The notes under the pieces are model-generated. The model was not told the DNA's origin and did not search any database. It saw only the letters and a list, made by a program, of their open reading frames with translations. Source: a virus. Taken from it: a stretch of DNA of 64,000 nucleotides. Made by a program: the position numbers and the translations under genes. Positions 12,151 to 32,186 of this stretch are shown here, piece after piece (the stretch's first letter is position 1; the number at the start of each line of letters is the position of its first letter). The stretch covers positions 1 to 64,000 of IMG/VR virus record IMGVR_UViG_3300025646_000024; one strand, written 5' to 3'.

Positions 12151-13938
12151 ATGGCTTTAGAAAAATGGGATTTAGGCAAAGAGCTTATGCAATGTCTTGC
12201 ATTTGCTCATTTTGCTGTATATAAGTATTCTAAAAGGACAGAAGATGAACATGAACAATTATTCTATGATTTGTTTGATCCAGATATAGCTATTGATACA
12301 AAACCATATAAAAAGCATCTGGGCGAAAACTTTCAATTCACTAGAGTGTTTGAAAACTGGCCAACCACACTCACACCTGCGACTGGAGAAAAGAGTGTCG
12401 ATATTGGAGTCAAAATAGTTTATGATGTAGCTAAAAATTTTTATCATAGAAATTTAATATCTAAAAACTTTCAGTTGTATCAATTTGTAGATCAGACAGA
12501 TCCATTCATGAAATTGATTAAAACTGAGTGTTTATCTAAAATAATAAAGGCAGCTAAATTGCCAATTAAAGAAGATGTATTGTCGAGTGCAGATATTTAC
12601 ATTGTGAAGATAGCAGAAAAAAACAAAATTGAAACTGAATTCACAAATGAAATACTGAGAAAATCTGATTTATATTTAATCAATAACTTTGATAAGTATA
12701 ATGAAATACTAGAAGCACATTGGACCAAACATTCTTTATTTGGAGTGTCGTTAAAACTTCCATCTACCAATGGGACAAAAAATATAAAAATAGTTGGAAA
12801 GAAAGATAATAAAATTGGAAAGAAAATGCTTAAGCATGTTGATCCATATAGTAAATTTATTGCTATGCTTTCTGATCCAAATGCAAACATTAACAAACTG
12901 ATAACTGAAACAGTAATATTTGATCACAATGGTATGGATATCAATAGAGTGGGGCAATGGAAATTTCCAGTAACTTTTAGATATAAAGAGTTGGGATTAT
13001 ATGAAAATGATGTGAAGTTTAATTTACTGGCATGGCCAAAAGCACAAAAAGATGGAGGGGGCACTGCAGGATTCAACGGACAATTTTTTGATACTCCTGG
13101 ATATAGTTCTCAGTGGGTGGGTGGAACTGGAGTCAAACCACTTGAGAATTTTCTGTTTAAATATCCAGAATTTAATAGAATTAATAATGAATTAATATCT
13201 ATTCGTAAAAAGGCATTAAATTATGCTCTATCTGGCAGTGTAAACAAATCAGTTAATTTAACCCAACAAATCAATACTGATATACAAGTAAATAAACCAA
13301 TTGGATCTGGCAAAACACCAGTCTATAGAAAATTAAAGAAGACCGATCCCAAGACTTCATATACTAAAGATGGCATGTATTCTAGAATGACTTATTTGAA
13401 GGGTCAGCAAGGGAAATATGATTACGGTGCCAATCCAACAAAAGATACTAAAAATTATAAAATGAAAATTAATAACTTGCAGACTTTATATTCCAGAGCA
13501 AAGCGAGATATATCAAAACCAGTATTTGTAGCTGGATCTGAGAGACAAAGTAGTTTAATTAAATTTATATCAGAATACGAATCTGCTACTGGGAGATCAA
13601 ATATATTAAATATCTATAGAACTGCAGTTGTAAATTTAATTTTAAAAAAAGAGCTACAGCATGGATTGAATAGAGATGATTCTGAAATTAAAACTCATTT
13701 TGAGAATGCTCAAATATCATATTTTTTAACTCGTGGTGGCCCAAATTTACATCTATACTTAAAGCAAAGAATATTCTTAACTGTATTTGGGGTTATTACA
13801 AAAAAATCATATAAAGTGTTCTTGAATAATATGACTGGAACTACACAAATGATTAGTGCAATTAAAGCACAAGTTATGAAAAGTATGATGAAAAATATAA
13901 AAGAGTTTGATACGGTACCACACTTCTACATGTCTTGA
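12151..13938 (+). CDS. 595-aa hypothetical protein, possible divergent PD-(D/E)XK-fold nuclease
   Basis: E.MQC...SADIYIV...GVSLK pattern; very AT-rich; directly follows 11509 under the late promoter. Confidence 0.4.
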   Translation: MALEKWDLGKELMQCLAFAHFAVYKYSKRTEDEHEQLFYDLFDPDIAIDTKPYKKHLGENFQFTRVFENWPTTLTPATGEKSVDIGVKIVYDVAKNFYHRNLISKNFQLYQFVDQTDPFMKLIKTECLSKIIKAAKLPIKEDVLSSADIYIVKIAEKNKIETEFTNEILRKSDLYLINNFDKYNEILEAHWTKHSLFGVSLKLPSTNGTKNIKIVGKKDNKIGKKMLKHVDPYSKFIAMLSDPNANINKLITETVIFDHNGMDINRVGQWKFPVTFRYKELGLYENDVKFNLLAWPKAQKDGGGTAGFNGQFFDTPGYSSQWVGGTGVKPLENFLFKYPEFNRINNELISIRKKALNYALSGSVNKSVNLTQQINTDIQVNKPIGSGKTPVYRKLKKTDPKTSYTKDGMYSRMTYLKGQQGKYDYGANPTKDTKNYKMKINNLQTLYSRAKRDISKPVFVAGSERQSSLIKFISEYESATGRSNILNIYRTAVVNLILKKELQHGLNRDDSEIKTHFENAQISYFLTRGGPNLHLYLKQRIFLTVFGVITKKSYKVFLNNMTGTTQMISAIKAQVMKSMMKNIKEFDTVPHFYMS

Positions 13939-18639: not shown

Positions 18640-19089
18640 ATGGGTACTCGCTCCAGAATCGGCATCGAACTCAAGAACCGCTCTGTGGTTTCTGTGTATT
18701 GTCATTATGATGGCTACCCTGAGCACAATGGTAAGATTCTCCAGAATCTGTATACTACCAGAGAGCAAGTCATCAATCTAATTGATGGTGGCAGTATGTC
18801 ATCTTTGCATACGTCACATGTATGGGAAACCAAAGCCATGCGGAATGAATCAAATGAAATCATCACTGATTCCGCAGGTAATTGGATGTATGAACCCACC
18901 AGACCTGAACAACCACTGTATCATACAGAGCGAGGTGAAGAACTAAATGTAGAACACACCAGCAAAAAGGAATTCCTGTCTGGTAATTCTGGAGAAGAGT
19001 ATGCTTATCTCTTCACCCTAGATAATCAATGGAAATGCTATAAGATTGGCTGGGGTGATACCAACACTCAAGAGATTCCTCTATCATGA
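18640..19089 (+). CDS. Phage hypothetical protein (MGTRSRIG...YCHYDGYP type)
   Basis: N-terminal motif familiar from phage hypothetical proteins; function unknown. Confidence 0.75.
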   Translation: MGTRSRIGIELKNRSVVSVYCHYDGYPEHNGKILQNLYTTREQVINLIDGGSMSSLHTSHVWETKAMRNESNEIITDSAGNWMYEPTRPEQPLYHTERGEELNVEHTSKKEFLSGNSGEEYAYLFTLDNQWKCYKIGWGDTNTQEIPLS

Positions 19090-19281
19090 ACATTCCAAAC
19101 TGGCAACACCATTCTAATAAACCAAAAACCACTAAAGGACAATCAAAAGCCAAACTCAAAGCACGTAGACAATCACTGAACCACCTCAAAGCCAAGTATT
19201 TACAACAGAAAAACACCACTTTCTCACATTAAAATTATACTCTATACTAAATACATCATGTTCCATCGTTTCTTTCAAAAA

Positions 19282-19620
19282 ATGCGTACTTTCAGACAAT
19301 TCCTAGAAGAAGCAAAGAAGAAGAAGCCACTATATTCCGAAAAGCAAATCATGAAAGCCCTAAACAAACAAGGTGGAATTGGTGGTAAAGCAGTAGAAAA
19401 GTATAATCAACAGAATCCAGATAGAGGACCAAGAGAGTATAAACTAGGTGAAGATATTCAACAGAGACAACAACAACTTAATACAACACAGAGAGAAAGA
19501 CTACAAGCAGAAAGAGAAAGAGTAGCAAAGTATAAAGCAAAGAGACAAGCAGATGTAGAGAGAGAAGATGAACAAGATGAAATTATTAAACGAATAGAAA
19601 TCATTAACAAAAATAAGTAG
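19282..19620 (+). CDS. Highly charged late protein with N-terminal capsid-targeting-like motif
   Basis: MRTFRQFLEEA from ATG 19282; ACTAAATA late-type promoter at 19246-53. Confidence 0.6.
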   Translation: MRTFRQFLEEAKKKKPLYSEKQIMKALNKQGGIGGKAVEKYNQQNPDRGPREYKLGEDIQQRQQQLNTTQRERLQAERERVAKYKAKRQADVEREDEQDEIIKRIEIINKNK

Positions 19621-19627
19621 AGTATAG

Positions 19628-19683
19628 TATTAGTTTTCCACAGGTAGAGTATAAATTGTGGAAAAACCTGTGGAAAACTAATA
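19628..19683. repeat. 18-bp perfect inverted repeat with three DnaA-box-like TTTTCCACA 9-mers
   Basis: TATTAGTTTTCCACAGGT (19628-45) / ACCTGTGGAAAACTAATA (19666-83); boxes at 19634-42 (+), 19657-65 (-), 19669-77 (-). Confidence 0.85.
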
Positions 19684-19753
19684 GATTAAAAATATGTTAA
19701 AAAATATGTATGAGAGAGATAGAATTATTAAGTATATGTGATAGAAAGAAAGG

Positions 19754-19905
19754 ATTATTAACCTTATACTGTATGCCTCCGAGAATTATTAACTGTATAC
19801 TGTATGCCTCCGAGTGTGTCAAGTAAATTATTAACCTTATACTGTATGCCTCCGAGTGTGTCAAGTAAATTATTAACCTTATACTGTATGCCTCCGAGTG
19901 TGTCA
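19754..19905. repeat. Tandem direct repeat: four copies of a 30-bp core, last three at 42-bp period
   Basis: ATTATTAACCTTATACTGTATGCCTCCGAG at 19754, 19785 (2 substitutions), 19827, 19869; linker TGTGTCAAGTAA. Confidence 0.95.
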
Positions 19906-19950
19906 GAGAAAGTATCTGAAATGTTCGGAGGTGTAGCAGTCTTGGCCCGC

Positions 19951-19979
19951 AGTATATCACATCACGCCGAATTTGTCAA
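19951..19979 (-). promoter_or_regulatory. Near-consensus leftward sigma70 promoter
   Basis: Minus strand reads TTGACA-17 bp-TATACT; no credible ORF downstream. Confidence 0.8.
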
Positions 19980-20158
19980 GCCCCCCAGCCCAAAAAACCC
20001 ATAAGGACTCCAAATCATTCCGAGGCCACCAATAAGTATTACTAATATAAGCATTCCAAATCCCTCCGAGTCCATTCATTAGCATTACTAATCACAGACC
20101 CCTTGACATACCACCCAGGATCAGGTATATTACATATGTCACTGAGACACCCCAACCC

Positions 20159-20353
20159 ATGAACTACCCAGACGTGGTACAATTCTTCAGCCCATCCATG
20201 AAACAAGATGAGATGATTGAAGTATTAACAGAAGAACTTTATAGTAATAACTACAAACTAATGGAAATGATTATTGAGGAATATGTAACCTCTATGGATA
20301 GTGAACAGTTGACTCATTTAGAATGTTTTATCAATAACAACCTGACTGATTAG
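20159..20353 (+). CDS. Small acidic hypothetical protein
   Basis: ORF behind promoter 20103; its stop TAG lies inside box B at 20347. Confidence 0.65.
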   Translation: MNYPDVVQFFSPSMKQDEMIEVLTEELYSNNYKLMEMIIEEYVTSMDSEQLTHLECFINNNLTD

Positions 20354-20426
20354 TAACACTTATGGCTCAGGGGGTTGACTCCAGCCCCAATTCAGGCCAT
20401 ACTTGAATCGTTCACCACCTGAACCC

Positions 20427-20986
20427 ATGAAACTCACCACCGAGCAAACTCAAGACCTGCTGACTGCACATTGCTATCGAGTTATTGATAACATGGATGC
20501 AGATGATTTGTTTAGCTATGCTATGCAACTCATGATGCAATCTTTTGACAAGAATCCTGGCCAAGGTGATACAGATGTTGAAGGATTGATTTCTGACATC
20601 TGGATTGCAGAAGATGAGGATGATGATAGTGCTCAAGAGTTTATTGCTGGTGTTCTAGGTAATGAACTCGCAGAGGAGATTGTAAAGACTACTCAATTCT
20701 AATTATTAACAATGGAAACTAGCTTCGATTTCCCTGAACTAGAGACTGAATGGCAGGATGACATGTTAATTCCTGCAGATGATGACTATGAAAGTGAACA
20801 ACACTTTCAGCAGTTTATTAACTCCAACACTGATTATTGATTATTATGTCTAAAGCACTTCTGGTTTCAATGCTTCGCAAAGGTCAAACTGGCAATGAGA
20901 TTCTCACGATTCTTAACATGCTCGCCAGTGAAGATGAAGACATTAGTAATACTAATGAACCAACTCTAGATGAGATTGAGTTCTGA
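20427..20986 (+). CDS. Three-gene acidic module, copy 1 (20427-20702; 20712-20840, 42 aa; 20846-20986, 46 aa)
   Basis: MKLTTEQ..., METSFDFPEL...FINSNTDY, MSKALLVSMLRKG...DEIEF; paralogous to copy 2 with reading frames conserved. Confidence 0.75.
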
Positions 20987-21067
20987 TTAGTATTACTAAT
21001 CATTCAGGGGGTTGACAAGACCCTGAAAATCGGTTAAGTTACCTTTGTTCACTTCTGAACCACTCCA

Positions 21068-21512
21068 ATGGCTCTGATTCTCGACACCAGCAATCAGTAC
21101 AACTCTGTTGCAAACCATGACTACAAAATGACATGGTGTGCATCTTGGGTTGACCATTATAATTTCCTTGCAGGTATTAGCTTTAATACTGAAGCTGAAA
21201 CTGCAATGTATAAAGAAGAGATGATGGAATATCTCTGCTATGATGTCTGATTAGTATTACTAATCAATCGGGGGGTTGACACCTCAACCCCCACCTGCTA
21301 CATTATCAATGTTCACTACTGAACCCATGACCAACACTTTTGACCGTGATTCGCTGATTGAAACCTATGTTCAGCAGCTTATTGATGGTATGGACATGAA
21401 GACTATGGAGCGTATGGTTTATGATACCTTGATTGACAATCTTTCTTCCTATTCTGATGAAGAACTGATTACAGAGGTTGAAGAATACAATCCCGAACTG
21501 TTGGAGGATTGA
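21068..21512 (+). CDS. Two single-gene cassettes (21068-21250; about 21327-21512)
   Basis: Each has its own promoter and ends at the TGA of box B; the second resembles the N-terminus of the 20427/21590 family (L.....ID.MD). Confidence 0.7.
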
Positions 21513-21589
21513 TCAGCATTACTAATCAATCGGGGGGTTGACAGGGATCAATCCCCATGCCATACTTACATCGTTCACCACACAAGGCC

Positions 21590-22134
21590 ATGAACCTCAC
21601 TTCTGAACAGGTCAAAGATCTCTGTCAGGCACATTGTTATCGTGTCATTGAACAAATGAACCACGATGATTTAATTAGCTATGCTGTACAGATGATGTAC
21701 ATGTCATTTGAAAAGAATCCTGGTGATGGTGACATTGATGTTGAAATGTTGGTTTCTGACATCTATGTTGCTGAAGATGAAGATGATGATTCTGTGTATG
21801 AATTTGTTTCTGGCACAGTAGGTGAAGAGATTGCTGAACAAGTTATTAACTATCAATTCTGAATCATGGACACTTATGATTTCGCTGAACTTGAGGCTGA
21901 AGTATTTGACTGGCAGGATGATATGTTGATTCCTGCCGATGATGATGCTGAAGCTGACAAACATTTCAGCCAGTTTATTAACTCCAACACTGATTATTGA
22001 TTATTATGTCTACAGAAGTTCTGATTTCGATGCTTCGCAAGGGAAAGAATGGTGAGCAAATTCTCACTATTCTCGACATGATTACTGGTGAGGATGATAC
22101 TGCAGAGCCCACATCTGAAGAGATTGAGTTCTGA
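21590..22134 (+). CDS. Three-gene acidic module, copy 2 (21590-21862; 21866-22000, 44 aa; 22006-22134, 42 aa)
   Basis: MNLTSEQ..., MDTYDFAEL...FINSNTDY, MSTEVLISMLRKG...EEIEF. Confidence 0.75.
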
Positions 22135-22215
22135 TTAGTATTACTAATCATTCAAGGGGTTGACAAACTCAGCCCCATCCTGTAAATTATTAACCGTACA
22201 CCTGCTGAACACATC

Positions 22216-22479
22216 ATGGCAACTGCAATCGCTCCTGTACATCGTCAGTTTACTAAAGAGCAATCTAGTGCTATTCATTCTATTACTATCCCTGGTGATA
22301 GTAATGATGTTTTTATTAACTATCATAGCAATGCAGATAAAGTTTACAACTTCACTGCATCAGATAGTTACATTGAATTCCTAAGTGATCTTCTCACTAA
22401 TGATGAGATCCTGAAGAATGTTAGCATTGGTTCTACTATTGCTGATGGGCGACGGACTGAAGAACTGAAGTCTGTCTGA
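22216..22479 (+). CDS. KTSC-domain-like small protein
   Basis: SSAIHSI....V.INY......YNF......SIG pattern resembles KTSC (SS.I.SI.Y...L.V.F..G..Y.Y...S.G). Confidence 0.45.
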   Translation: MATAIAPVHRQFTKEQSSAIHSITIPGDSNDVFINYHSNADKVYNFTASDSYIEFLSDLLTNDEILKNVSIGSTIADGRRTEELKSV

Positions 22480-22602
22480 TAGAATCTATGGGGGGTGAGA
22501 TTCCCCCCTTTTCATTACATTATTACAGATTGTGACAGCTGAACTCATTGCAGCCCTGATCATGCTTAAACTGTTGAACACAGCCCATCGCAAACTCTCA
22601 CA

Positions 22603-23038
22603 ATGGATCCGATGATTTCTGTTCAGCCTATCAGCAAAAAGGCCAAAAACAGGTTCGCTAATCTAATGGAATCTTGCGAGCATTGTATTGTTGAACAACA
22701 CAAAGGAGATAAAGTCTTTCTGCGTAGTCTAAATGGCAGAAACTTCTTCTGGGTTAATGTACACCACGATCAGGATTGGCTGTTGGAGATGTAATTATTT
22801 CGGATTGTGAACATGGGGGCATCCAAGCCCCCAGCCATGCTGTAGGATTGATGAGTCAACCGCAAACGACACCGTGACCAGCCAAAACCCCTACGTTCAG
22901 CAGCTGCAAGCCCAGGGCAAGGAGCCCAGCAAGGCTGCTGCCCCTAAGCGGACCTTCCCTTGCACCATCGGTGCTCGGACCTTCCACACCGAGGAGCAGT
23001 ATCAGGAAGCCCTGCACGAGTTTCTGAACGGGTACTGA
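22603..23038 (+). CDS. Two single-gene cassettes (22603-22794; 22874-23038, GTG start, 54 aa)
   Basis: Each is preceded by box C and a -10 element (TAAACT 22567, TAGGAT 22843). Confidence 0.65.
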
Positions 23039-23113
23039 TAAGCAACGCTAATCAGTCGGGGGCTCCACGAGCCCCCACCAGCTGCTAGACTTTTCTCAGT
23101 TCACACCCAAGCC

Positions 23114-23782
23114 ATGAACTTCGCCCTCACCGCCATCAGCAGCAACGCTAAGACTGGCCCGATCCCCACCAGCACTAGCAGCCGTGAGACCTGCCCCAGC
23201 ACCTGCCCCTTTTACGACAAAGGGTGCTACGCTAAGTCTGGCCCCCAGAACATTCACTGGAAAAAGGTTACTGAAGGTGAGCGTGGTGTAAACTTTCAAG
23301 AGTTTACAACTGCAATCCGTAAGCTTCAGCGAGGCCAACTCTGGCGGCACAATGTATCTGGTGATCTGCCACACATTCTGGGTGACATTAACGCACCTAT
23401 GGTGGAAGCTCTCGCTGATGCAAACCGTGGCCGCAAAGGTTACACCTACACCCACCACATTCTGAATGATCATAACCTAAAGGTCATTCAGGAAGCTAAC
23501 AGCAAAGGCTTCACGATTAACGCTTCCACTGAAGACGTAGAGGTGGCTGATGCAGTGATGACAGAGCACGGTATTCCTGCTGTTGCTGTTGTCAAGTCTG
23601 ACAAAACAGATAGATTCTACAAAACAGAATCAGGTCGCAAAGTTGTCACCTGCCCCGCTACAATTCATGAGAATGTAACTTGTGCAACCTGTAAGCTTTG
23701 TGCAAAGTCTGACCGAGACTTTATCATTGCATTCCCTGCACATGGCAATGCAAAGAAAACAGTGAACGAGATTGTCGCCTAA
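23114..23782 (+). CDS. Cys-rich phage protein (GP88-like, possibly Fe-S binding)
   Basis: N.KTG...TCPSTCP....GCYA, RHNVSGD, YTYTH, NAS and C-terminal CPA....TCATCKLC motifs. Confidence 0.6.
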   Translation: MNFALTAISSNAKTGPIPTSTSSRETCPSTCPFYDKGCYAKSGPQNIHWKKVTEGERGVNFQEFTTAIRKLQRGQLWRHNVSGDLPHILGDINAPMVEALADANRGRKGYTYTHHILNDHNLKVIQEANSKGFTINASTEDVEVADAVMTEHGIPAVAVVKSDKTDRFYKTESGRKVVTCPATIHENVTCATCKLCAKSDRDFIIAFPAHGNAKKTVNEIVA

Positions 23783-23896
23783 AGTATAATTATTTCGGAT
23801 TGTGAACAATCGGGTCTGGGGCATCGCCAGCCCCCACCCGATGCTGTAGAATACGATCAAGCGAGGCAAGGGACCTCGCACAACCCACCCGAGACA

Positions 23897-26236
23897 ATGA
23901 CCAGCTCTGACCGTCTGACCCGTACCAGCATCCCCACCGTGGTGGCTGTTGCCATTGCCAAGGTCACTCTGCTGAAACCCCACGTTATCGGCAGGCACCG
24001 TGCACAGTGGCTGTTCGATCTGGCCACCAGTGAGACTGCTCTCAAGGAGGAGCGCAAGCTGGGCCGTAAGGCACTGCAGATCGCTGCCGATGCTGCTGGC
24101 CGCAGCGTGATCACCCTGGCTGATGGTCGCACCATCGGCAACCGAGTCTACAGCAAGGCCAGCAACCGCAGGCTAGTTCGCTGGAGCCAGGATCGCCCTA
24201 GCGCAGTCTGACAAGTGGCACAAGGGGGCTTGACAGCAAGCCCTTTTTTTGTCTTTTTTTATTAACTATTTTATGGCAGGGGGCGTGGCGACCATTTCAT
24301 CATCAGGCTTACCCCAGCCCTCTCTCGGTTGTGAAACTATCCTAGCACGGCACCAGCCCACTAGGACAGCTCCAAACCAGTTCAGCCACTGGCACAAGAC
24401 CCCTAGACTCTGGCCAGGATCTGTGCGATTCTATAAAGGTCAAACAAAGGCAACCCCATGAATCCCTTTCTCACTGATTCACAAGTGGAAGAACTGAATA
24501 CAATGGGTTACATTGAATTGACTGAAGAATTATTAAGCGTTATATTTAATACTACCAATGTAGTTTGGGAGAATGATATTCTGGTAGACAAGAATTATTA
24601 TCAATAATACAAAATTATTAACCGTAATAGGTAATACTTAACCATACATTCCCCCATACACATAGGGGCACAATGTATGATTAAAGCACACACCTAGGCC
24701 AGTCCAGAGACTGGCCACCAGCTGGCCCAGACCCCACCAGCCCACCTGCTATACTGATCTCAGTTCAGCCAAAGGCCATGATCGCCAACCACGCCACCGC
24801 ACAAGACTTCGCCAACTGGGAAGCCAAGGCCAAGGCCATGACCATGGCTGAGCTGCTATGGTCGGCACAGGATGCTCGCAAGGCCGAACAGGCGATGCGA
24901 GGCTGGAACCCCATCGCTGAGGGTCGCTACAGCGATGAGGCAAGCACCTATGGCGATGAGATCCGCCGCCGCAGGGCCAGAGCCTGAGCTGGCCCAGGGC
25001 CACCTGGCCCACTGGCACACTCCAAACCCCAGTGGGCCAGCTCCAAACCCGTCACAGTGTGACAATCCAAAAAGCTGCACAAGCCCCTGTTGCCAGCTGC
25101 CGCTTGGGCCTGCTAGTGTTGATCACGTACACCGCACTACAGCGATGCAACCCACCGTCACCCTGACCCTGACCGCTTGGGAGGCCGAGCAGCTGCGCCG
25201 CATGGCCTTCGACTCCAGTTCCTACTGGTTCGGCATCCTGCAGGAGGCATTCAACGACCCTGCCAACACCAGGGATCGGGAAGCCATTGAGCGCCTGTGG
25301 CGTCAAAGCGGGGCCATGGCCCAGCGCCTGGGTGAGCTGATCGGCTGATCAACCACGGGGCCACCATCTGGCCCCACCATGATGTACACTTAATCTCAAG
25401 CGGGCCGACAGGAGCCCGCACACCCCCCAGAGACAATGGCAAACGACATCGCCACCCTCGCCCTCGCCTACAAGCAGGCCACTGATGCCCTGAAGCTCGC
25501 CGAGCAGGCCAAAGCCGATGCCAGCCTGGCCTTGGTGGAAGCCATGCAGGCTGCCGAACAGGAGCGGGTTGAAACCCCTGCAGGCAAGGTCAGCCTGTGC
25601 CAGGGTCGCCGCACCGTTAAGGTCACTTGCAAAGCTTTGCAGGCCGAGATCAAGCTCCTACAGGAGCGGGCCGTCAGGACAGGCCGAGCCGTTGAAGCGG
25701 TGGGCAAACCCTACGTCATGATCCGCTGATCAACCATGGGGCAAGCTTGACGGCTTGCCCCTTTCTGCCCCATAATGGGGAAGTCCAAACGACACCCGAC
25801 CCATGGCCACGATCAACCCCATCGAAGCCGACTTCATCACCCATTGCATCGAGGTGTGGTGTAACGAGCTGCCGCAGATCGCTGGGCGTCCCGTGATGTT
25901 CACCACACAGGGCGAGCAGCCTGAGCAGGTGCTGCTGACTCATGATCAGATCGAAGCTCTGTACCTGCGGCTGCAGGCCCTGAAGTGAGCCCTACGGGGA
26001 GCCTACGGGCTCCCCTTCCTATCCACAACCACAACCACACACCGAGCATGTTTGAGACCCTCAGAGAGGCCACCATGGCCCGTGCAAACGATGCTGGCTG
26101 CATCCCATACCAAGACGCCCTAACCGAGGCCATCAGCCACGGTGCAGGCCAGGAGTTTATTGCCCTGTATGGGTCAGCCATCGCCTGGCCTATGGGTGTG
26201 GATGCTGGCGAGTGGCTGGCCTGGCTCGGTTACTGA
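23897..26236 (+). CDS. GC-rich single-gene cassettes (23897-24211, 24778-24987, 25145-25348, 25436-25729, 25803-25988, 26048-26236) plus AT-rich 24458-24607
   Basis: GC3-rich + strand ORFs, mostly starting 20-45 nt behind a -10 element. Confidence 0.65.
24224..24250. terminator. Rho-independent terminator overlapping a TTGACA
   Basis: GGGCTTG-ACAG-CAAGCCC then T7 and a second T7 run. Confidence 0.75.
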
Positions 26237-26408
26237 ATGTAACGGGGGAGCCAGTCTCCCCCATTGATCAGCGATACTGATCGATCAGCAGTGCTGATCA
26301 GTGGGCAGAGGCAGTATAAACGGCCCTTATGGGTCGCCGCCCCCCGTACCCGTGGAAAATTCTAAATACTCAAGCTATAAACCTTTACCAGCGACTTCGA
26401 TATATTCA

Positions 26409-26864
26409 ATGATTAAAAATAAAAAAATTTTGCCCACAAAATTTGACGGCTACTATGTTTCTGAAGACGGAAAAATTTTTACTGAGTGGCATTTAGTAAA
26501 TAATAATGGAAGATTTGGTTCAATCAGAGGAGAGCTGCGAGAAGTAAAATCTCATCCAAGAGGAGGATGTAATCCAAATGACAGATATTTAGCTGTAAAT
26601 ATTTCATTAAAAAATGACCAAGGAAAAACTATTAAGCAAATCAAATATTACTCACATAGACTCATAGCAGAGACTTTTATAGAAAACCCACAAAATTTGA
26701 AAGAAGTAGACCATATTGATGGAAACAAACAAAATAACTCAACAACAAATCTGAGGTGGGTAGATAGAAAAGAAAACCTAAAATGGATGATAGGAAATAC
26801 TTTTGGAAAAAATTTTCGACAAAAAAAATCCGAGAACCTTGTAGATTCTCGGAGAAAAAAATAA
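26409..26864 (+). CDS. HNH homing endonuclease (NUMOD4/HNH_3 type)
   Basis: YYVSEDG, HRLIAETFIENP....VDHIDGNKQNN...NLRW; ATG 26409 preferred to GTG 26301. Confidence 0.88.
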   Translation: MIKNKKILPTKFDGYYVSEDGKIFTEWHLVNNNGRFGSIRGELREVKSHPRGGCNPNDRYLAVNISLKNDQGKTIKQIKYYSHRLIAETFIENPQNLKEVDHIDGNKQNNSTTNLRWVDRKENLKWMIGNTFGKNFRQKKSENLVDSRRKK

Positions 26865-26875
26865 TTTATTTGAGA

Positions 26876-27514
26876 TTAGTCTTTACCTCTCTTTGGATTT
26901 TCAACTCCTAGTCTTGCTCTTGCAGAATTACGATTCAATCTGAATCTCTTAGTCAGGTCTTTACCTGTCTTAACTGCTTCTTTTCCTTCTTTAGACTTTC
27001 TAAATTGCTTTTCTTGTGATGCCATGCTTTTCATCACAAATCTTGGAACTGGCTGATCTCTTTTTGCATTTCTTGCAAATGATCTCCTTTGTGATGTTCT
27101 AGGTGATACTGTAGTAATAGATCTAAAATCAGCATCTTTCTTTAGACTATCATCAGTGCTCTTTTTAAACTTTGGATTAACATTAGTGTTATCCTGAATT
27201 CTTGGCTTAGATTTATCTGCGTTTCTTAGTCGATTCATTGTAAGTTTGTGGACTTCAGGAAACTTAGATTGATTAGATCTATTACCATGAATTGTTTCTC
27301 GTGCATCATCATATCCAGTTGCAGTTCCACCAGTCTTCTTGGCTAGCCCTTTTGCCATTGTTGATTTACCAGAGCCAGGCATTCCAGCCATTTTAATATC
27401 TAATGGTGCACTAGATTTGCCACTCTTTGCACCTGGCTTTGGTGTTCTACCTTGCTTTGATGCAACTTGTGATCTTCTAGAAGATTCTAAAAGAAATTCA
27501 GAATATGTCTTCAT
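26876..27514 (-). CDS. Very basic P-loop kinase (AAA_33/PNK-like) with N-terminal capsid-targeting-like motif
   Basis: MKTYSEFLLES; GMPGSGKST, YDDARE, DNTN, RNAKRD..VP; AATAAATA late-type promoter on the minus strand at 27533-40. Confidence 0.8.
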   Translation of the reverse strand: MKTYSEFLLESSRRSQVASKQGRTPKPGAKSGKSSAPLDIKMAGMPGSGKSTMAKGLAKKTGGTATGYDDARETIHGNRSNQSKFPEVHKLTMNRLRNADKSKPRIQDNTNVNPKFKKSTDDSLKKDADFRSITTVSPRTSQRRSFARNAKRDQPVPRFVMKSMASQEKQFRKSKEGKEAVKTGKDLTKRFRLNRNSARARLGVENPKRGKD

Positions 27515-27572
27515 ATAATTGAATTTTTTAAATATTTATTTCGGCTATATACTGTAGTTTTAAATACAATAC

Positions 27573-27755
27573 ATGTCAACATTTTCTTCATTTACTACTG
27601 AGGTACAGTATGATGATGCATCTGGAGAATACTTCATTACATTCCCAGATGAGCTTATAGATGAGATGCAATGGCAAGAGGGTGATACTTTAGAATTTGA
27701 ATACTTTGATCACCATGATACTCCTGGTATTCGCATACATAAAGTAGGAGACTGA
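27573..27755 (+). CDS. AbrB/MazE-like swapped-hairpin small protein
   Basis: GEYFITFPDELIDEMQWQEGDTLEF matches the AbrB pattern. Confidence 0.7.
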   Translation: MSTFSSFTTEVQYDDASGEYFITFPDELIDEMQWQEGDTLEFEYFDHHDTPGIRIHKVGD

Positions 27756-27765
27756 CCCTAATAAT

Positions 27766-30700
27766 ATGTCTAATTGTAGTCCAAAGAAAGACCCTGTAGA
27801 TAAGAAGCTTACTTTTACATATACAGAGTGCCCTGCACCAGAAGAAGGATCACCAGCTCAGATTACTATAGAGTTTCCATATATTGAAAAGTACTGGTAC
27901 GAAGTTAGGCCGCCTGATGCAGCAAACAAGACCATCCAAAATGGAAGCAAGCAACAAAAGCTTCGTCGATCTGTAATTCAAGTACCTGCTGTTGATGCAG
28001 AGAATGCAGATGGAGATAATGTAAACTTTGTTGATCAGGTATTTTATCAACCAGAATATGAGATTGTTGGTTCTGGTGATGACATTAAAAGTAAGCCAGT
28101 ATATGAAAGATTCTGTAAGGCAGATAAAGTATACGACGAGCAATACTTCTACCATATCTTTGAATGGCCATTAACACATACTCTTCCTGCACGACCTGTG
28201 GGAGGTATTACTGTAACTACTCCACCACCTCCTCCACCAGGATCTGAGGGTGGAGAAGAGAGTTGTCCAGTTTATGCAGTATCCAGTACCAGCGTCGGTG
28301 GTACATTTACACTCAATAGAGTAGACAGTCAAGTAATTGGCCTACCTGAGGGAAGCGTTGCTTACCATGGAGGTACACTCGATAATAAGATATTCTTTTA
28401 CTATGAGAATACCACCAATAAAGATATGATTGCTGTTGGTGATGTCATTAATGGCTGGACAGTTGATAAAGTAGTTAACTATAACTCTGAGCACTTTGAC
28501 GAGAAATCTTTAAGAACCACAGAGTCCGTTAGAAGAAGAGTCTCTAAGTTTTCTGAGAAGAACAAGACTCCTGGGTTTATCTTTATCAACAAAAACGACG
28601 GTGCAGAAGATAGAATTATCAACGTCGGGGACTTAGTGACTGGCTATGGTATTCAGAAGGACACTTATGTAGATAGTATTCAAGGACTTAAGATCTTTCT
28701 TACTAGACCTTTAAAGTACAAAAACAAGAGAAGAGTTAGAAACGTCAGGTTTACTAACACTGGTCTTGCTAATAACATCTCAAACCAGATTCTTTGCTAT
28801 GCAGAAATTAGTGGTGGCAGTGCTGCATTCATTAAAGACCAGTACTATTCAAAAGATACCCCCTCAACTCCCCAGTATACAAGTACGATTTACCATGTTT
28901 TTGACGACAAAAAGAACAAAAACATACAACTGACCACAACCAAGGAAATAAAGGTTCAAACTATCAATAGAAACGACGAAGGTGGGTCAAATGATAGTGA
29001 TAACAGAAAGCACTACTTAGTGACTTTCTTGGATGAAACTACAATTAGCAATAAAAGTGATGTGCAAATTTCTATTACTGATGATAGGACTGCATCAGGA
29101 GTAGAACAATCTTTTGTATTTGCTTCTAAAATTGAAGTTGTAGACAGTAAAAGTTTCAAAGTATGGTTCAAGAGAAATGATAACAAGGTTAACACTTATG
29201 TTCGTGGATGGAATGTAACCAGAGTTCCAGGTGGAGCAGTCATTCCTGAAAATAGAATTCAAGTGATTGCTGGTAGAGGCATCATAGACAGGTCTGCAGT
29301 CTGTGGTGTTTATGTCAGTAATGATAAAAAGTTCTATACTTATACTCCTTTATTCTATTCTAGAGATGGATTCTGCGAATCTACTTACCTAGAAGATGAC
29401 CTAGGTAAATTTGCACTTGGTAGTGTTATTCTAAACGATAAAAGTTATTACTTACAACAACAGTTTTTATGTGTTGGACCTGCAAATGACACTGCATACC
29501 AAATCAATAACATTTTTTGGACCTATTTTAACAGGCCATCCGAGATTAATGAACTAAAAACTTGGATAAGTCGCTTAGCTTCTTCTGATTTTCTTACTAT
29601 TCAAAAGGAAATTATAGATTCTGAGAAGTTAAAACTCGGACAAAGAACTATTTTAGCAGTTAAAGACTCCGAATGTGACAGCACTATCAATCCAGACTAC
29701 TCAAAAGTCTATTATCCACACAGTGAATTCAATACTTTTAATGAATATATTGCTCCTGTTCAAAATGATAGTGTATTTGACCCATGTATTGACGTAAAAA
29801 CACCTAAAACTTACAGTAAAGAAGAGTTAGACTCTATAATTACGACAAATCTTGGTGGTAGTTTTCACTTTTCTAGTATCAATTTACCTGAGGAGATGTA
29901 TAAACAGGTGATTTCTAATGAAAATTCACTTCAAAATACCCTACTGAGAGCAATTACTGCTATTGGTAGTTCTGTTCCAAAGCAAACTACCATCCCAAAT
30001 CTACCTCCACTCATTGAAGGAGAGGATAAATCCAGTCAAGTGTTTAGAACTGAGGCTGCATATCGCATTCCACCAAGATTTAAGTCACTTGAATACATTA
30101 TTGAAGACTTTAGTTTCGTCAGTGATTCAAGTCTCTTCCCAGATTCAGATGAAAACAACACTGAAATACAAATTAAGTCTATTCCTAAGTGGACTGGAAG
30201 TGTTTCTCCAGCAAGTGGGGATGGTTGGCAAGCAAATGTCAATACTGATGGAGAAGGTTTCATTAACACAGTAACTATTTCTGCAGTTCCATTCCCTGCT
30301 CCACCACTAGGTGGAAGTACTACTGCATGGGCTGCTGGGCCAGCTCCTACTACATTCTGGCATGGGGATGATACTAACTACCAAGTTACATTTAAAAAGA
30401 TCTTAAACTTTAGAGTTAACGAAGTTAGTAAGAACCTTTCTAATGCAGTCAAGAACAAAGGTAATCCATTTATGGATGAACCTCCATATGCAAAGCTAGT
30501 TCAAGATCTAAAACCAACTGATACTACAATCAAAGTAGACAGTACTAGCCAATTTATCTCTGCAGGATATTTAATTATTCCAAAATATATCGTCAAAAAA
30601 GAAGTAAATCCAGAAACTAGGAATGAAACCCCATATCATTATTACCTAGGTGAAGAAATTATCTATTACAGAGATAAAACAGAAACAGAGTTTCTGCAAT

Positions 30701-31020
30701 GTACACGAGAGATGTTTGATACAACATCTTCATTTGAAAAAATTGCAAATTCAGGAGATATTGAATCTGATGTAACCTATATAATTAAGACTCTTGGATC
30801 TGTCAATTGGAAAGATTATGGTGCTCCAGATGATTATGGAGTCGGAACTATATTTACTGCTACATCTGATGGCTCTGGTGAAGTTGAAAGTGGAGAAGTA
30901 TACTTGTTTGAGAGTACTATGACTCCATTTGAAAATAGTAATTATGCATACTATAGTTATGAAAAGAATAATTACTTGTCTCAATTCTGGCCAATCTCAA
31001 TTCAGAATAAAAACGTATGA
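27766..31020 (+). CDS. Large virion structural protein (1084 aa)
   Basis: Lies before PAAR and baseplate genes; TTIKVDST..F...G...GEEIIYY and YIIKTLG..W...GA...GTIFTA repeats are shared with the gp7-like protein. Confidence 0.6.
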   Translation: MSNCSPKKDPVDKKLTFTYTECPAPEEGSPAQITIEFPYIEKYWYEVRPPDAANKTIQNGSKQQKLRRSVIQVPAVDAENADGDNVNFVDQVFYQPEYEIVGSGDDIKSKPVYERFCKADKVYDEQYFYHIFEWPLTHTLPARPVGGITVTTPPPPPPGSEGGEESCPVYAVSSTSVGGTFTLNRVDSQVIGLPEGSVAYHGGTLDNKIFFYYENTTNKDMIAVGDVINGWTVDKVVNYNSEHFDEKSLRTTESVRRRVSKFSEKNKTPGFIFINKNDGAEDRIINVGDLVTGYGIQKDTYVDSIQGLKIFLTRPLKYKNKRRVRNVRFTNTGLANNISNQILCYAEISGGSAAFIKDQYYSKDTPSTPQYTSTIYHVFDDKKNKNIQLTTTKEIKVQTINRNDEGGSNDSDNRKHYLVTFLDETTISNKSDVQISITDDRTASGVEQSFVFASKIEVVDSKSFKVWFKRNDNKVNTYVRGWNVTRVPGGAVIPENRIQVIAGRGIIDRSAVCGVYVSNDKKFYTYTPLFYSRDGFCESTYLEDDLGKFALGSVILNDKSYYLQQQFLCVGPANDTAYQINNIFWTYFNRPSEINELKTWISRLASSDFLTIQKEIIDSEKLKLGQRTILAVKDSECDSTINPDYSKVYYPHSEFNTFNEYIAPVQNDSVFDPCIDVKTPKTYSKEELDSIITTNLGGSFHFSSINLPEEMYKQVISNENSLQNTLLRAITAIGSSVPKQTTIPNLPPLIEGEDKSSQVFRTEAAYRIPPRFKSLEYIIEDFSFVSDSSLFPDSDENNTEIQIKSIPKWTGSVSPASGDGWQANVNTDGEGFINTVTISAVPFPAPPLGGSTTAWAAGPAPTTFWHGDDTNYQVTFKKILNFRVNEVSKNLSNAVKNKGNPFMDEPPYAKLVQDLKPTDTTIKVDSTSQFISAGYLIIPKYIVKKEVNPETRNETPYHYYLGEEIIYYRDKTETEFLQCTREMFDTTSSFEKIANSGDIESDVTYIIKTLGSVNWKDYGAPDDYGVGTIFTATSDGSGEVESGEVYLFESTMTPFENSNYAYYSYEKNNYLSQFWPISIQNKNV

Positions 31021-31340
31021 CAAGACCCATCGCAGCATTAGGAAATCCAGATTCTATTTCATTTAGACCCTGTTGTGTCTATCCACCAAATATCGTCACT
31101 CCCATTGTGGCAACGGTATTTGCCAATGGACGCCCTAGAGCCAAGGCAGGAGACGTTCTAACCCCAGCTCCAGGCTTTCCAGTCTGTCCAAATACTACAT
31201 GCACCCCCATAGCTAGGACTATCATTGCCCCCAGCAAGGTCTTTGTAAATGGTCGGCCATCCGCACACGTAGGGGACTTGACAAATCCAGTTTCCCCACG
31301 TACAATACTACCTGTACCCACCAACATTTTCGTGAACTAA
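31017..31340 (+). CDS. PAAR-domain spike tip protein (gp5.4-like)
   Basis: RPIAALG, VFANGRPRAKAGD, VFVNGRPSAHVGD repeats. Confidence 0.85.
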   Translation: MTRPIAALGNPDSISFRPCCVYPPNIVTPIVATVFANGRPRAKAGDVLTPAPGFPVCPNTTCTPIARTIIAPSKVFVNGRPSAHVGDLTNPVSPRTILPVPTNIFVN

Positions 31341-31341
31341 C

Positions 31342-31485
31342 ATGGCAAAAGCACCTAGTTTTAACAAGTCTGGCTATACTCCAGCTAAGCCCAAAATGAC
31401 TCGTCAAGGTCAGTCAAAAAATACCCGACTTTCTGCATCCAGTCGAAATGGACGCAAAAAAGCCTATCGAGGGCAAGGTCGATAA
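31342..31485 (+). CDS. 47-aa basic peptide (MAKAPSF...KKAYRGQGR)
   Basis: ORF below the track cutoff; lies between the PAAR stop and a terminator. Confidence 0.7.
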   Translation: MAKAPSFNKSGYTPAKPKMTRQGQSKNTRLSASSRNGRKKAYRGQGR

Positions 31486-31489
31486 TAGT

Positions 31490-31516
31490 AAAAAGGGGTC
31501 GAAAGACCCCTTTTTT
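31490..31516. terminator. Bidirectional Rho-independent terminator
   Basis: A5-GGGGTC-GAAA-GACCCC-T6. Confidence 0.9.
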
Positions 31517-31588
31517 GTCCCTAAATACTACCGAAGGGATAGCAACCCCTTTAAAAGTTCTGTTAGACCCATTTTTTGGAGAAAACAG

Positions 31589-31744
31589 ATGGCAATTCAC
31601 CCAAATCCCGACAGGGATGTTACATATATGAAGCAAACGTGGGGAACTACAAAATTAGTTACAGATTATGCTTCGTTACCAACAAAAAGAAAAAAGGTTT
31701 ACCAAGTAGACTATTGTGAATACTTTAAAGATACATCTAAATAG
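31589..31744 (+). CDS. Small hypothetical protein (MAIHPNPDRD...WGT)
   Basis: GGAG RBS, ATG 31589, late-type CCTAAATA at 31520-27; the ORF-track start 31448 crosses the terminator. Confidence 0.65.
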   Translation: MAIHPNPDRDVTYMKQTWGTTKLVTDYASLPTKRKKVYQVDYCEYFKDTSK

Positions 31745-31769
31745 TTTATAATTACAACATTTTATTTAA

Positions 31770-32186
31770 ATGTCAACTGTTTCACAAGAGTTAGGCAAAA
31801 TTTCTAGGTCATTTAAGGACATTAGTTTAAATTTTGGACTAAATCCTGTGACTAAAGACATTGTAGTGCTAAAGAATGAAGAGGCAATTAAACAGTCGGT
31901 AAAAAATTTAGTATTAACTAGGTTAGGAGAAAGACTGTTTAATCCTCTTATTGGAACTGATACTACAAGTTACTTATTTGAGCTAACTGCTACATTCTCA
32001 GCAAATTCACTGATTGAAGAAATTGAAAGTGTTTTGCTTACATATGAACCTAGAATAACACTTAATAATATTACAGTTAATGTGGATGACGATACAAATG
32101 AATTTGAAGTTATAATAGATTATTTTATTGTTGGATTACCTCCCATAGTACAAACCGTAGATTTTATCCTCGTAAGAGAAAGTTAA
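31770..32186 (+). CDS. gp25: Baseplate wedge subunit gp25
   Basis: FKDISL.F..NP, AIKQSVKNLVLT..GERLFNP..G, YEPRI. Confidence 0.92.
   Translation: MSTVSQELGKISRSFKDISLNFGLNPVTKDIVVLKNEEAIKQSVKNLVLTRLGERLFNPLIGTDTTSYLFELTATFSANSLIEEIESVLLTYEPRITLNNITVNVDDDTNEFEVIIDYFIVGLPPIVQTVDFILVRES

Follow-up and report, generated by a model that had tools for sequence, protein, structure and literature searches.

The closest described counterparts of the locus analysed here are the promoter-early stem-loops (PeSLs) of the T4-type phages RB49/phi1, T4/PST and KVP40/nt-1 (Arbiol et al., 2010, PMC2839356; Comeau et al., 2014, PMC4122927). A PeSL is an intergenic unit in which the upstream gene ends, its stop codon lying in an AT-rich tract; a sigma70-type promoter and a stem-loop of polyG/polyC type, able to overlap the −35 box, complete it. 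Such units cluster in hyperplastic regions and are associated with indels, and experiments in RB49 showed that they drive and terminate transcription and give rise to mini-circles (PMC2839356, PMC4122927). PeSL shuffling was shown experimentally only in coliphage RB49/phi1 and inferred for the two other phage pairs, and the only cyanophage paper we found that raises PeSLs, on S-PM2, considered them too thinly scattered in that phage to account for gene gain (PMC4503421). Here we describe an array of small genes at positions 20076–26300 of a 64,000-nucleotide stretch of viral DNA (the window), which is the first 64 kb of the 80,263-bp IMG/VR virus record IMGVR_UViG_3300025646_000024 (estimated completeness ∼44%). 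This array is probably an early-gene hyperplastic region of a T4-like cyanomyovirus, built from PeSL-type cassettes that are shuffled at the linkers between them.

T4-like phages are believed to use their small early genes as a toolkit for host takeover and for countering defences, and its turnover is among the central problems of phage evolution. The general principle has been published before; judged from its sequence, the array would be a cyanophage example of PeSL cassettes and would extend this architecture to an ecologically important group of phages. It offers three unusually clean natural cases: the gain or loss of one cassette across a 21-nt junction, a linker of chimeric make-up and two alleles in tandem. 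It also shows linker dialects that match cassette G+C and may mark separate exchange pools. Its specific addition is an oriented element, GATWAG-N5-CTAATCA, at a fixed distance upstream of the −35 box, which recurs in 43 other viral loci.

The virus and its relatives

PHROG searches of the contig matched a portal protein, tail sheath, large terminase, baseplate wedge, helicase and RnlA-type RNA ligase, and the portal protein shares 63–65% identity with its counterparts in cultured Synechococcus and Prochlorococcus myoviruses; because of these matches the virus can be classed as an uncultured T4-like cyanomyovirus. The G+C content of the contig is ∼35–38%, and 52–62% between 23 and 26 kb. Megablast of 19000–27500 against cultured phages returned zero matches, a 38-nt linker query (blastn) gave chance-level matches only, and Rfam over 18–28 kb yielded only sub-threshold chance matches. 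Among cultured phage proteins the U5a protein had no match and the U10 protein a single distant one, in Synechococcus phage Sf-FR1.

Relatives were retrieved by a pattern search and by a search with the 1084-aa protein encoded downstream of the array; every contig compared is a metagenome assembly. Below, G000 is the present contig, G001 a complete 172-kb relative, and L-numbers denote other viral contigs; U1–U16 are the cassettes of the window, and X stands for a cassette or segment without counterpart in it.

Linkers of the array resemble PeSLs

The array comprises 16 promoter-bearing linkers and 21 small open reading frames (ORFs), one of them doubtful, all on the + strand, as are all array features given below; an earlier note, made from the letters of this DNA, had put the number of units at about 15, a fair count. 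In each linker the stop codon of the upstream gene is followed by a G-run/C-run stem-loop over the −35 box and spacer, a −10 box, a short leader that often has a 5′ hairpin, and the next ATG. Sigma70-type geometry, TTGAC(A)-N17-TAnnnT, is present as a sequence match at 20103, 20375, 21012, 21276, 21538, 22160 and 25747. The combination of G-run, TTGAC, N17–18 and −10 box occurred 11 times (0.71 expected), and a stringent scan found 27 perfect GGGG..CCCC hairpins in the 80-kb contig vs 0–2 in local shuffles. Nine of the contig's ten + strand units of hairpin plus −10 box fall in the array, and seven of the 11 in complete G001 fall in the orthologous 5 kb. A loose hairpin scan (GGG start, G-U allowed) was dropped, as it gave 24 vs 13–29 shuffled here and 64 vs 29–45 in G001.

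All 17 linkers fold lower than their own shuffles (mean z ∼ −2.8). The array is not uniform, however: an AT-type linker with a palindrome heads units 1–6, a GC version heads unit 9, and the GC-rich half (22.8–26.3 kb) has different linker types, one consisting of TAATTATTTCGGATTGTGAACA plus hairpin (at 22792 and 23787) and another of CTGATCAACCAYGGGGC plus hairpin (at 25345 and 25726). The palindrome that the earlier note had made part of the repeating unit thus stands in full in six linkers (20076, 20347 in degenerate form, 20984, 21248, 21510 and 22132) and as a GC-type in that at 23036, but is not found in the others. Folding of the AT-type linkers predicts up to three hairpins: the palindrome, the G-run/C-run hairpin enclosing the −35 box, and GTTCA..TGAAC at the leader start. 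The ∼50 distinct G-run hairpins in the array and its relatives have perfect 6–10 bp stems with variable inner pairs (TTGA/TCAG, CTTG/CAAG, ACCC/GGGT, CCAG/CTGG, CAAGCT/GGCTTG). Orthologous linkers carry compensatory double changes, e.g. GGGGGCTC/GAGCCCCC before U9 here vs GGGGGCTT/AAGCCCCC in L014, and AGCC/GGCT vs ACCC/GGGT. The −10 box stands 7–10 nt past the hairpin and very often has the extended form TGCTAnnnT or TGnTAnnnT, which accounts for the many GC-type linkers without a recognisable −35 box.

Eight stop codons had been proposed to lie inside the next repeat, and the ORF table and sequence agree for all of them: six (TAG at 20351; TGA at 20984, 21248, 21510, 22132 and 23036) form the first bases of the 19-nt palindrome, and the other two, the TGAs at 25346 and 25727, sit within CTGATCA. 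The GC-type linkers of relatives likewise open with a stop codon (TGAGCCCAGCCGGGG...), and the AT-rich stop-bearing tract is confined to AT-type linkers. Two relatives keep the TGA although their palindrome is swapped for another upstream element; the stop codon overlaps the repeat without depending on it. No Shine-Dalgarno sequence (GGAG-like) was found upstream of any array ATG, which bears out the remark that the leaders usually lack one. Picocyanobacteria use Shine-Dalgarno sequences weakly, and the leaders here fit this habit.

The resemblance to PeSLs that the earlier note drew from RB49 is apt. Both concern a T4-like myovirus whose short intergenic units combine the stop codon of the upstream gene with a sigma70-type promoter and a stem-loop of polyG/polyC type, placed over the −35 box or between −35 and −10. 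In both, these units are concentrated where small early ORFans form a hyperplastic region, it is within them that indels and replacements between close relatives are joined, and no dedicated recombinase is known. A stop codon within the repeat is likewise part of the published PeSL description (PMC2839356, PMC4122927), and the array shows all sequence-level features of PeSLs but the Shine-Dalgarno sequence. It differs in its cyanobacterial host, in its leaders without Shine-Dalgarno sequences (not central to the PeSL concept) and in the many GC-type units that use an extended −10 box with no recognisable −35. Furthermore, linker dialects (the AT-type with palindrome and two GC-types) stand side by side and track cassette G+C, and the upstream tract, beyond being AT-rich, forms an oriented element of defined 7-5-7 layout.

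Cassettes are exchanged between relatives

The right flank of the array (27520–32000) is collinear at 71–88% identity in the ten compared loci, whereas the array is mosaic. Cassette content differs in each relative, and common cassettes keep their order. Specifically, the order is U1-X-U2abc-U6-U7-X-U10-U11-U12-X-U15-X-U16 in L012, U1'-U3-U5abc-U6-U7-X-U9-U10 in L017, and U1'-U3-X-b,c-U6-U7-X-U10-X-HNH-like in L016; the array is ∼6.3 kb long here vs ∼3.8 kb in L017. The nearest relative shifts from cassette to cassette, being L014 for U1 (92% amino acid identity), L007 for U3 (98%), L017 for U5a (97%), L011 for U6 (82%), L016 for U7 (90%) and L012 for U11 (100%). Homology ends fall in stop-to-ATG gaps in 63 of 95 cases, gaps making up 32% of the region (nominal binomial P of 4e-12), and most of the remaining ends lie ≤ ∼15 nt from a gap. 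The core of the earlier proposal has thus stood up: the relatives are not collinear within the array, and their breakpoints are in the boxes, which act as joints where cassettes are gained, lost or replaced.

Comparison of L012 with L014 gave the same pattern, with linker-only matches of 31–86 nt at 79–100% identity that link non-homologous cassettes. Among window linkers of unrelated cassettes, the zone from palindrome to TTGAC is 71–97% identical, and the part from hairpin loop to ATG, which travels with the downstream gene, 23–57%. Such linkers share 20–40 nearly identical nucleotides, in the AT-type from the palindrome through the G-run to TTGAC, and exact repeats among window linkers reach 35, 26, 22 and 21 nt. 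These linker patches are the sole homologous patches between otherwise unrelated genes.

Junctions at base resolution

The cleanest case is U4 (61 aa, DUF7326; 21327–21512), whose cassette of 266 bp is in L007 and missing from L016, the sole cassette difference there. The L007 and L016 alignments overlap by a 21-nt core, CTAATCAnTCAGGGGGTTGAC, common to both flanking linkers, and the single linker of L016 equals the left part of one L007 linker plus the right part of the other. In its sequence this indel has the form to be expected of a crossover between direct repeats, or of the reverse insertion of a circle.

Linker 3 (20984–21067) contains a perfect palindrome (20984–21002), a G-run with TTGACA at 21012, TAAGTT at 21035–21040 and a leader hairpin at 21047–21060. 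Its left palindrome half continues the U2c/U5c tail as in the junctions of these genes with U6. From CTAATCA on it matches the U3 promoter of L016, L017 and L007, whose left half is unrelated; linker 3 is thus a chimera of two linker types. The following ORF U3 (60 aa; 21068–21250) has 95–98% amino acid identity to L016/L017/L007, its neighbours there being far more diverged, and a search for further contigs with U3 returned only these three.

A three-gene module is present twice. U2a (DUF7326; 20427–20702), U2b (20712–20840) and U2c (20846–20986) group with the L012/L014 alleles, and U5a (21590–21862), U5b (21866–22000) and U5c (22006–22134) are 97, 86 and 88% identical in amino acids to L017. 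Rather than a duplication in situ, as had been suggested, the two modules (20427–20986 and 21590–22134) are divergent alleles brought into tandem, and their arrangement reads as two alleles stacked by unequal exchange between linkers.

Several points weigh against shuffling at PeSL-type linkers. Published PeSLs end in a Shine-Dalgarno sequence and the linkers here do not (PMC2839356, PMC4122927); most linker hairpins are without a U-run, only those at 22490 and 24222 being canonical terminators; and the promoter and attenuator roles are predicted from sequence geometry and the RB49 experiments. Moreover, homology ends are not independent events, for relatives share ancestry, and selection against broken genes alone also leaves intergenic junctions, which makes the breakpoint count necessary, not sufficient. 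Finally, an assembly misjoin at a repeat is possible for the U2c/U3 junction, which was seen in no other contig.

In the strongest competing explanation, the linkers are regulatory punctuation only (promoter plus attenuator), illegitimate recombination strikes anywhere, survivors end between genes, and breakpoints coincide with linkers because of selection. Linkers fill nearly all intergenic space, so that 'in a linker' and 'between genes' are inseparable by position, and promoter-like geometry is retained even where cassettes are conserved, both of which speak for this explanation. It is nonetheless unlikely, as the U4 indel junction is a direct repeat common to both flanking linkers, linker 3 is joined within a shared core, and linkers of unrelated cassettes share the long matches described above. 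The U4 repeat, the chimeric linker and the linker-only matches therefore argue for homology-guided exchange and not for random end joining. We give very little credence to the view that assembly created the tandem of U2abc and U5abc by fusing two co-occurring strains at a linker repeat: it would suit the metagenomic source, the absence of the U2c/U3 and U4/U5a adjacencies from all other contigs and the 35-nt exact repeat shared by both junctions of U2c and U5c with their linkers, but the putative parents of the join at 20984–21012 share only 11–13 nt exactly, which is short for assembler error, the window linker differs from both, and a chimera would touch one feature, the mosaic among the ten other contigs being independent of this tandem.

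Which machinery could move the cassettes?

The earlier note, seeing no recombinase in the window, had asked for one to be sought in the rest of the genome. Neither tyrosine recombinases (PF00589) nor serine recombinases/resolvases (PF00239) had matches in G000 or complete G001 (the same search found the control genomes), and G001 encodes a RecA/UvsX-type protein. For these two reasons, general recombination of the UvsX type or template switching is the likely enzymology.

A site-specific mover could be an integron-like integrase acting on palindromes or hairpins, or the product of the HNH gene (26409–26864), making breaks at the palindrome that are repaired from a co-infecting phage. The palindrome is indeed well conserved and region-confined in a complete genome, two tandem copies lie directly 5′ of the HNH gene, and homing endonucleases of T4-type phages are known to stimulate exchange of the DNA that flanks them (discussed in PMC4122927). 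We nevertheless consider such a mover highly improbable. No tyrosine or serine recombinase was found in the contig or the complete relative; every cassette comes with a promoter of its own, which those of integrons lack; L012, L014 and L017 lack the HNH gene and have the same palindromes and mosaicism; and the GC-type half shuffles equally without the palindrome. In addition, the wider element around the palindrome is asymmetric and at a fixed distance from the −35 box, which argues for a promoter-linked role.

The label 'integron-like' therefore describes the appearance of the array and not its mechanism. With integrons it shares a one-directional row of small, mostly single-gene units, imperfect inverted repeats between them and a content that varies among relatives. 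It differs in having no integrase, attI, attC-type site or common Pc, in repeats that belong to several unrelated types, and in junctions that look like homologous exchange between direct repeats. Similarly, short conserved sequences between exchangeable modules and an HNH gene at the array edge recall the linkers of the modular theory and homing-driven exchange in T4 (PMC2839356, PMC4122927), but the array linkers are predicted promoter/hairpin units, 16 in 6 kb, and HNH presence does not track mosaicism.

With shuffling at PeSL-type linkers as the favoured reading, we propose that host primary-sigma RNA polymerase would start each unit early in infection, and that the stem-loop would damp read-through from the upstream unit, making each unit transcriptionally self-contained. 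As the comparisons indicate, crossovers between linker patches take out, bring in, swap or stack whole cassettes and leave the genes intact. The exchange would be performed by the general recombination/replication machinery (UvsX type) or by template switching between direct repeats, and no site-specific recombinase would take part; the palindrome additionally supplies much of the crossover patch in this lineage.

An oriented element upstream of the −35 box

The palindrome TGATTAGTATTACTAATCA (≤ 3 mismatches) has 11 strand-matches, all in 20076–22150, compared with 0.07 in shuffles, and in complete G001 it is restricted to the orthologous region. It is the local symmetric version of a wider element, GATWAG-N5-CTAATCA, which reads (T)GATWAG, five bases (often YAAYA), CTAATCA, 3–6 bases (mostly four), G3–6 and TTGAC. 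The pattern CTAATCA-N3-5-GGGGTTGAC alone had 65 matches, about the number that we estimate for chance, and is meaningful only after a check for the left half-site; this half-site is present in 43 of 59 further viral loci from the pattern search. These 43 loci usually have one copy each, and the genes behind it vary. Its right half-site hardly changes, the usual left half, GATAAG, departs from the exact complement of the right, and the centre lacks symmetry; the element ends 8–10 nt upstream of the −35 box and is centred near −54.

This orientation and the fixed distance to the promoter point to protein binding; neither an RNA hairpin nor a recombination site in its own right is indicated, and the palindrome is most likely a protein-binding site of this promoter class. 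An RNA hairpin role is unlikely, the GATAAG/CTAATC mismatch being uncompensated and the centre asymmetric. More tentatively, GATWAG-N5-CTAATCA may be an operator at which a regulator, supplied by phage or host, controls one class of early promoters in cyanophages, spread along the array here, so that one sequence would both co-regulate the cassettes and serve as crossover patch; this we hold to be possible, though on balance doubtful. If true, the operator reading would couple regulation to gene shuffling, and the conserved element is a concrete target for finding a regulator of cyanophage early transcription. The composite of operator and promoter was absent from 185,579 bacterial and archaeal genomes, which leaves a host regulon with the same composite unsupported. 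Of the binding motifs compared, NtcA (GTA-N8-TAC), Fur/Zur 7-1-7, LexA, CIRCE and pho boxes do not fit the 7-5-7 spacing, and the fit of the LysR-type T-N11-A motif is too loose to count.

Eleven contigs (L027, L028, L029, L034, L035, L043, L057, L058, L060, L073 and L077) carry one highly conserved composite, GATAAG TTCTT CTAATCA...GGGGTTGAC...TATATT, followed by a conserved hairpin-forming leader (GGTTGAGGGATTCCTCAC); in L027 it lies on the − strand near 12490, and the contigs sharing it are otherwise different. At 4160–4560 of L016 and 9550–9950 of L007 (reverse), two adjacent linkers have TTCTGAAAC(C/T)GGCCCAAAGGGGTTGACA instead of the palindrome. That the upstream element can be replaced, and the replacement then be common to adjacent linkers of one genome, suggests copying between linkers.

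Organization of the array

The array has two palindrome copies at either end (20030/20076 and 26265/26282). The left boundary (20030–20094), kept in L012, L014 and L009, is a palindrome-family pair (20030–20048, degenerate, and 20076–20094) in a 46-nt repeat 5′ of the first promoter. Linker 1 (20076–20158) consists of palindrome, TTGACA (20103–20108), N17, TATATT (20126–20131) and leader, and precedes U1 (64 aa; 20159–20353), which ends on a TAG in the next palindrome and shows 92% amino acid identity to L014 and 53–63% to other relatives. In linker 2 (20347–20426) a degenerate palindrome is followed by a G-run with TTGACT at 20375, a C-run hairpin, CATACT and the leader hairpin GTTCA..TGAAC (20410–20424). 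Beyond the U2 module, linker 3 and U3, linker 4 (21248–21326; fold z −5.4) has its palindrome at 21248–21266, the hairpin GGGGGTTGA..TCAACCCCC around TTGACA at 21276, TACATT at 21299–21304 and a leader hairpin. Linker 5 (21510–21589), between U4 and the U5 module, carries the palindrome variant TGATCAGCATTACTAATCA, a G-run with TTGACA at 21538 and CATACT at 21561–21566. Linker 6 (22132–22215), with palindrome at 22132–22150, hairpin GGGGTTGA..TCAGCCCC, TTGACA at 22160 and TAAATT at 22183–22188, leads into U6 (87 aa, phrog_4357; 22216–22479). Linker 7 (22490–22602) combines a G6/C6 hairpin and T-run (the canonical terminator, 22490–22508) with TACATT at 22516–22521 and a long leader, before U7 (63 aa, phrog_1653; 22603–22794).

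Linker 8 (22792–22873), of the second type, has TAATTATTTCGGATTGTGAACA, the hairpin GGGGGC..GCCCCC (22815–22832), TAGGAT (22843–22848) and a 22-nt exact repeat with 23787; behind it lies the GC-rich U8 (54 aa, GTG start, phrog_649; 22874–23038), which is 94% identical (amino acids) in L014 and absent from L012, L016 and L017. The GC-type palindrome TGATAAGCAACGCTAATCA opens linker 9 (23036–23113), whose hairpin occupies 23058–23076 and whose extended −10 TGCTAGACT (23086–23091) and CAGTTCA leader precede U9 (222 aa, DUF7227; 23114–23782). Linker 10 (23780–23896), again of the second type, contains the 22-nt box repeat at 23787, a nested hairpin, TAGAAT (23847–23852) and the leader hairpin GCGAGG..CCTCGC. 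U10 (104 aa; 23897–24211) occurs in nine of the 11 loci fetched by the downstream flank protein, plus L009 and L011. No relative of U10 was found in the 185,579 bacterial and archaeal genomes searched, and a recent host origin of this GC-rich cassette is unsupported.

A canonical terminator with TTGACA in the loop, then a T-run (24222–24247), comes before the doubtful ORF (24273–24461), which varies in length among relatives and has an ATGA overlap with the start of U11 (49 aa; 24458–24607). U11, 100% identical to its L012 counterpart, is AT-rich (G+C ∼0.33) and sits among GC-rich cassettes, which carry GC-rich linkers; across 22800–26300 G+C rises from ∼0.39 to 0.52–0.62. Linker 12 (24605–24777; fold z −6.3) has hairpins, the extended −10 TGCTATACT (24750–24755) and a CAGTTCA leader before U12 (69 aa; 24778–24987), and linker 13 (24985–25144) long GC hairpins and the extended −10 TGCTAGTGT (25114–25119) before U13 (67 aa; 25145–25348). 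The stop of U13 is a TGA in CTGATCAACCACGGGGC, the start of linker 14 (25346–25435) with a hairpin at 25357–25375, TACACT at 25385–25390 and the leader hairpin GCGGGC..GCCCGC; that of U14 (97 aa; 25436–25729) is a TGA in CTGATCAACCATGGGGC, the start of linker 15 (25727–25802), where the loop of a 10-bp hairpin (25738–25761) is TTGAC and CATAAT lies at 25771–25776. U15 (61 aa; 25803–25988), linker 16 (25986–26047; TGA plus hairpin GGGGAGCC..GGCTCCCC at 25996–26015) and U16 (62 aa; 26048–26236) complete the row. The right boundary (26244–26300), 81–89% identical in nine of ten relatives compared, comprises a hairpin (26244–26262) and two overlapping GC-type palindromes (26265–26283 and 26282–26300).

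Besides U2a, U4 and U5a (DUF7326) and U9 (DUF7227), only U6, U7 and U8 matched families, all PHROGs of unknown function; domain and PHROG searches gave no family match for the remaining array ORFs. U14 has PHROG matches to Mu Gam-like end-protection and RecE-like families that are too weak for naming (E 0.002–0.005). The leaders of U10 and U14 (23861–23879 and 25400–25419) are of one type, their hairpin being kept by compensatory changes (GCGAGG..CCTCGC vs GCGGGC..GCCCGC) and followed by CACA, a C-rich stretch and GAGACAATG. In L015, L016 and L020 a U14-like leader precedes U10, so leaders, too, move between genes. The motif (A/C)(C/G)TGGCACA stands past stops or in long GC-type linkers at 24213–24220, 24389–24397 and 25008–25016, and likewise in L012 and L014.

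Flanking regions

Left of the array, a gene-free block (19621–19983) contains an 18-nt perfect inverted repeat (19628–19645/19666–19683) with TTTTCCACA-type boxes, four ∼42-nt tandem repeats (19753–19915) and a near-consensus leftward promoter, TTGACA-17-TATACT, at 19979. The block, partly conserved in L012, L016, L017 and L011, looks like an origin or control region.

On the right, the AT-rich gene for an HNH_3 homing-type endonuclease (26409–26864, + strand) directly follows the tandem palindromes and is variable among relatives: its site is taken by a 46-aa ORF in L012, L014 and L017, and divergent HNH versions occur in L016 and L011. A unit of G-run, TTGACA, C-run and TACAAT at 31272–31306, in the conserved structural flank, is kept in all relatives fetched; promoter-hairpin units therefore also stand alone beyond the hyperplastic region. 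Near the array, a single clear gene runs on the minus strand, at 26876–27514; it encodes a P-loop kinase (polynucleotide-kinase-like PHROG) that is 93% identical in L014 and has no match in L012, where other sequence fills the interval; the variable zone therefore reaches past the array.

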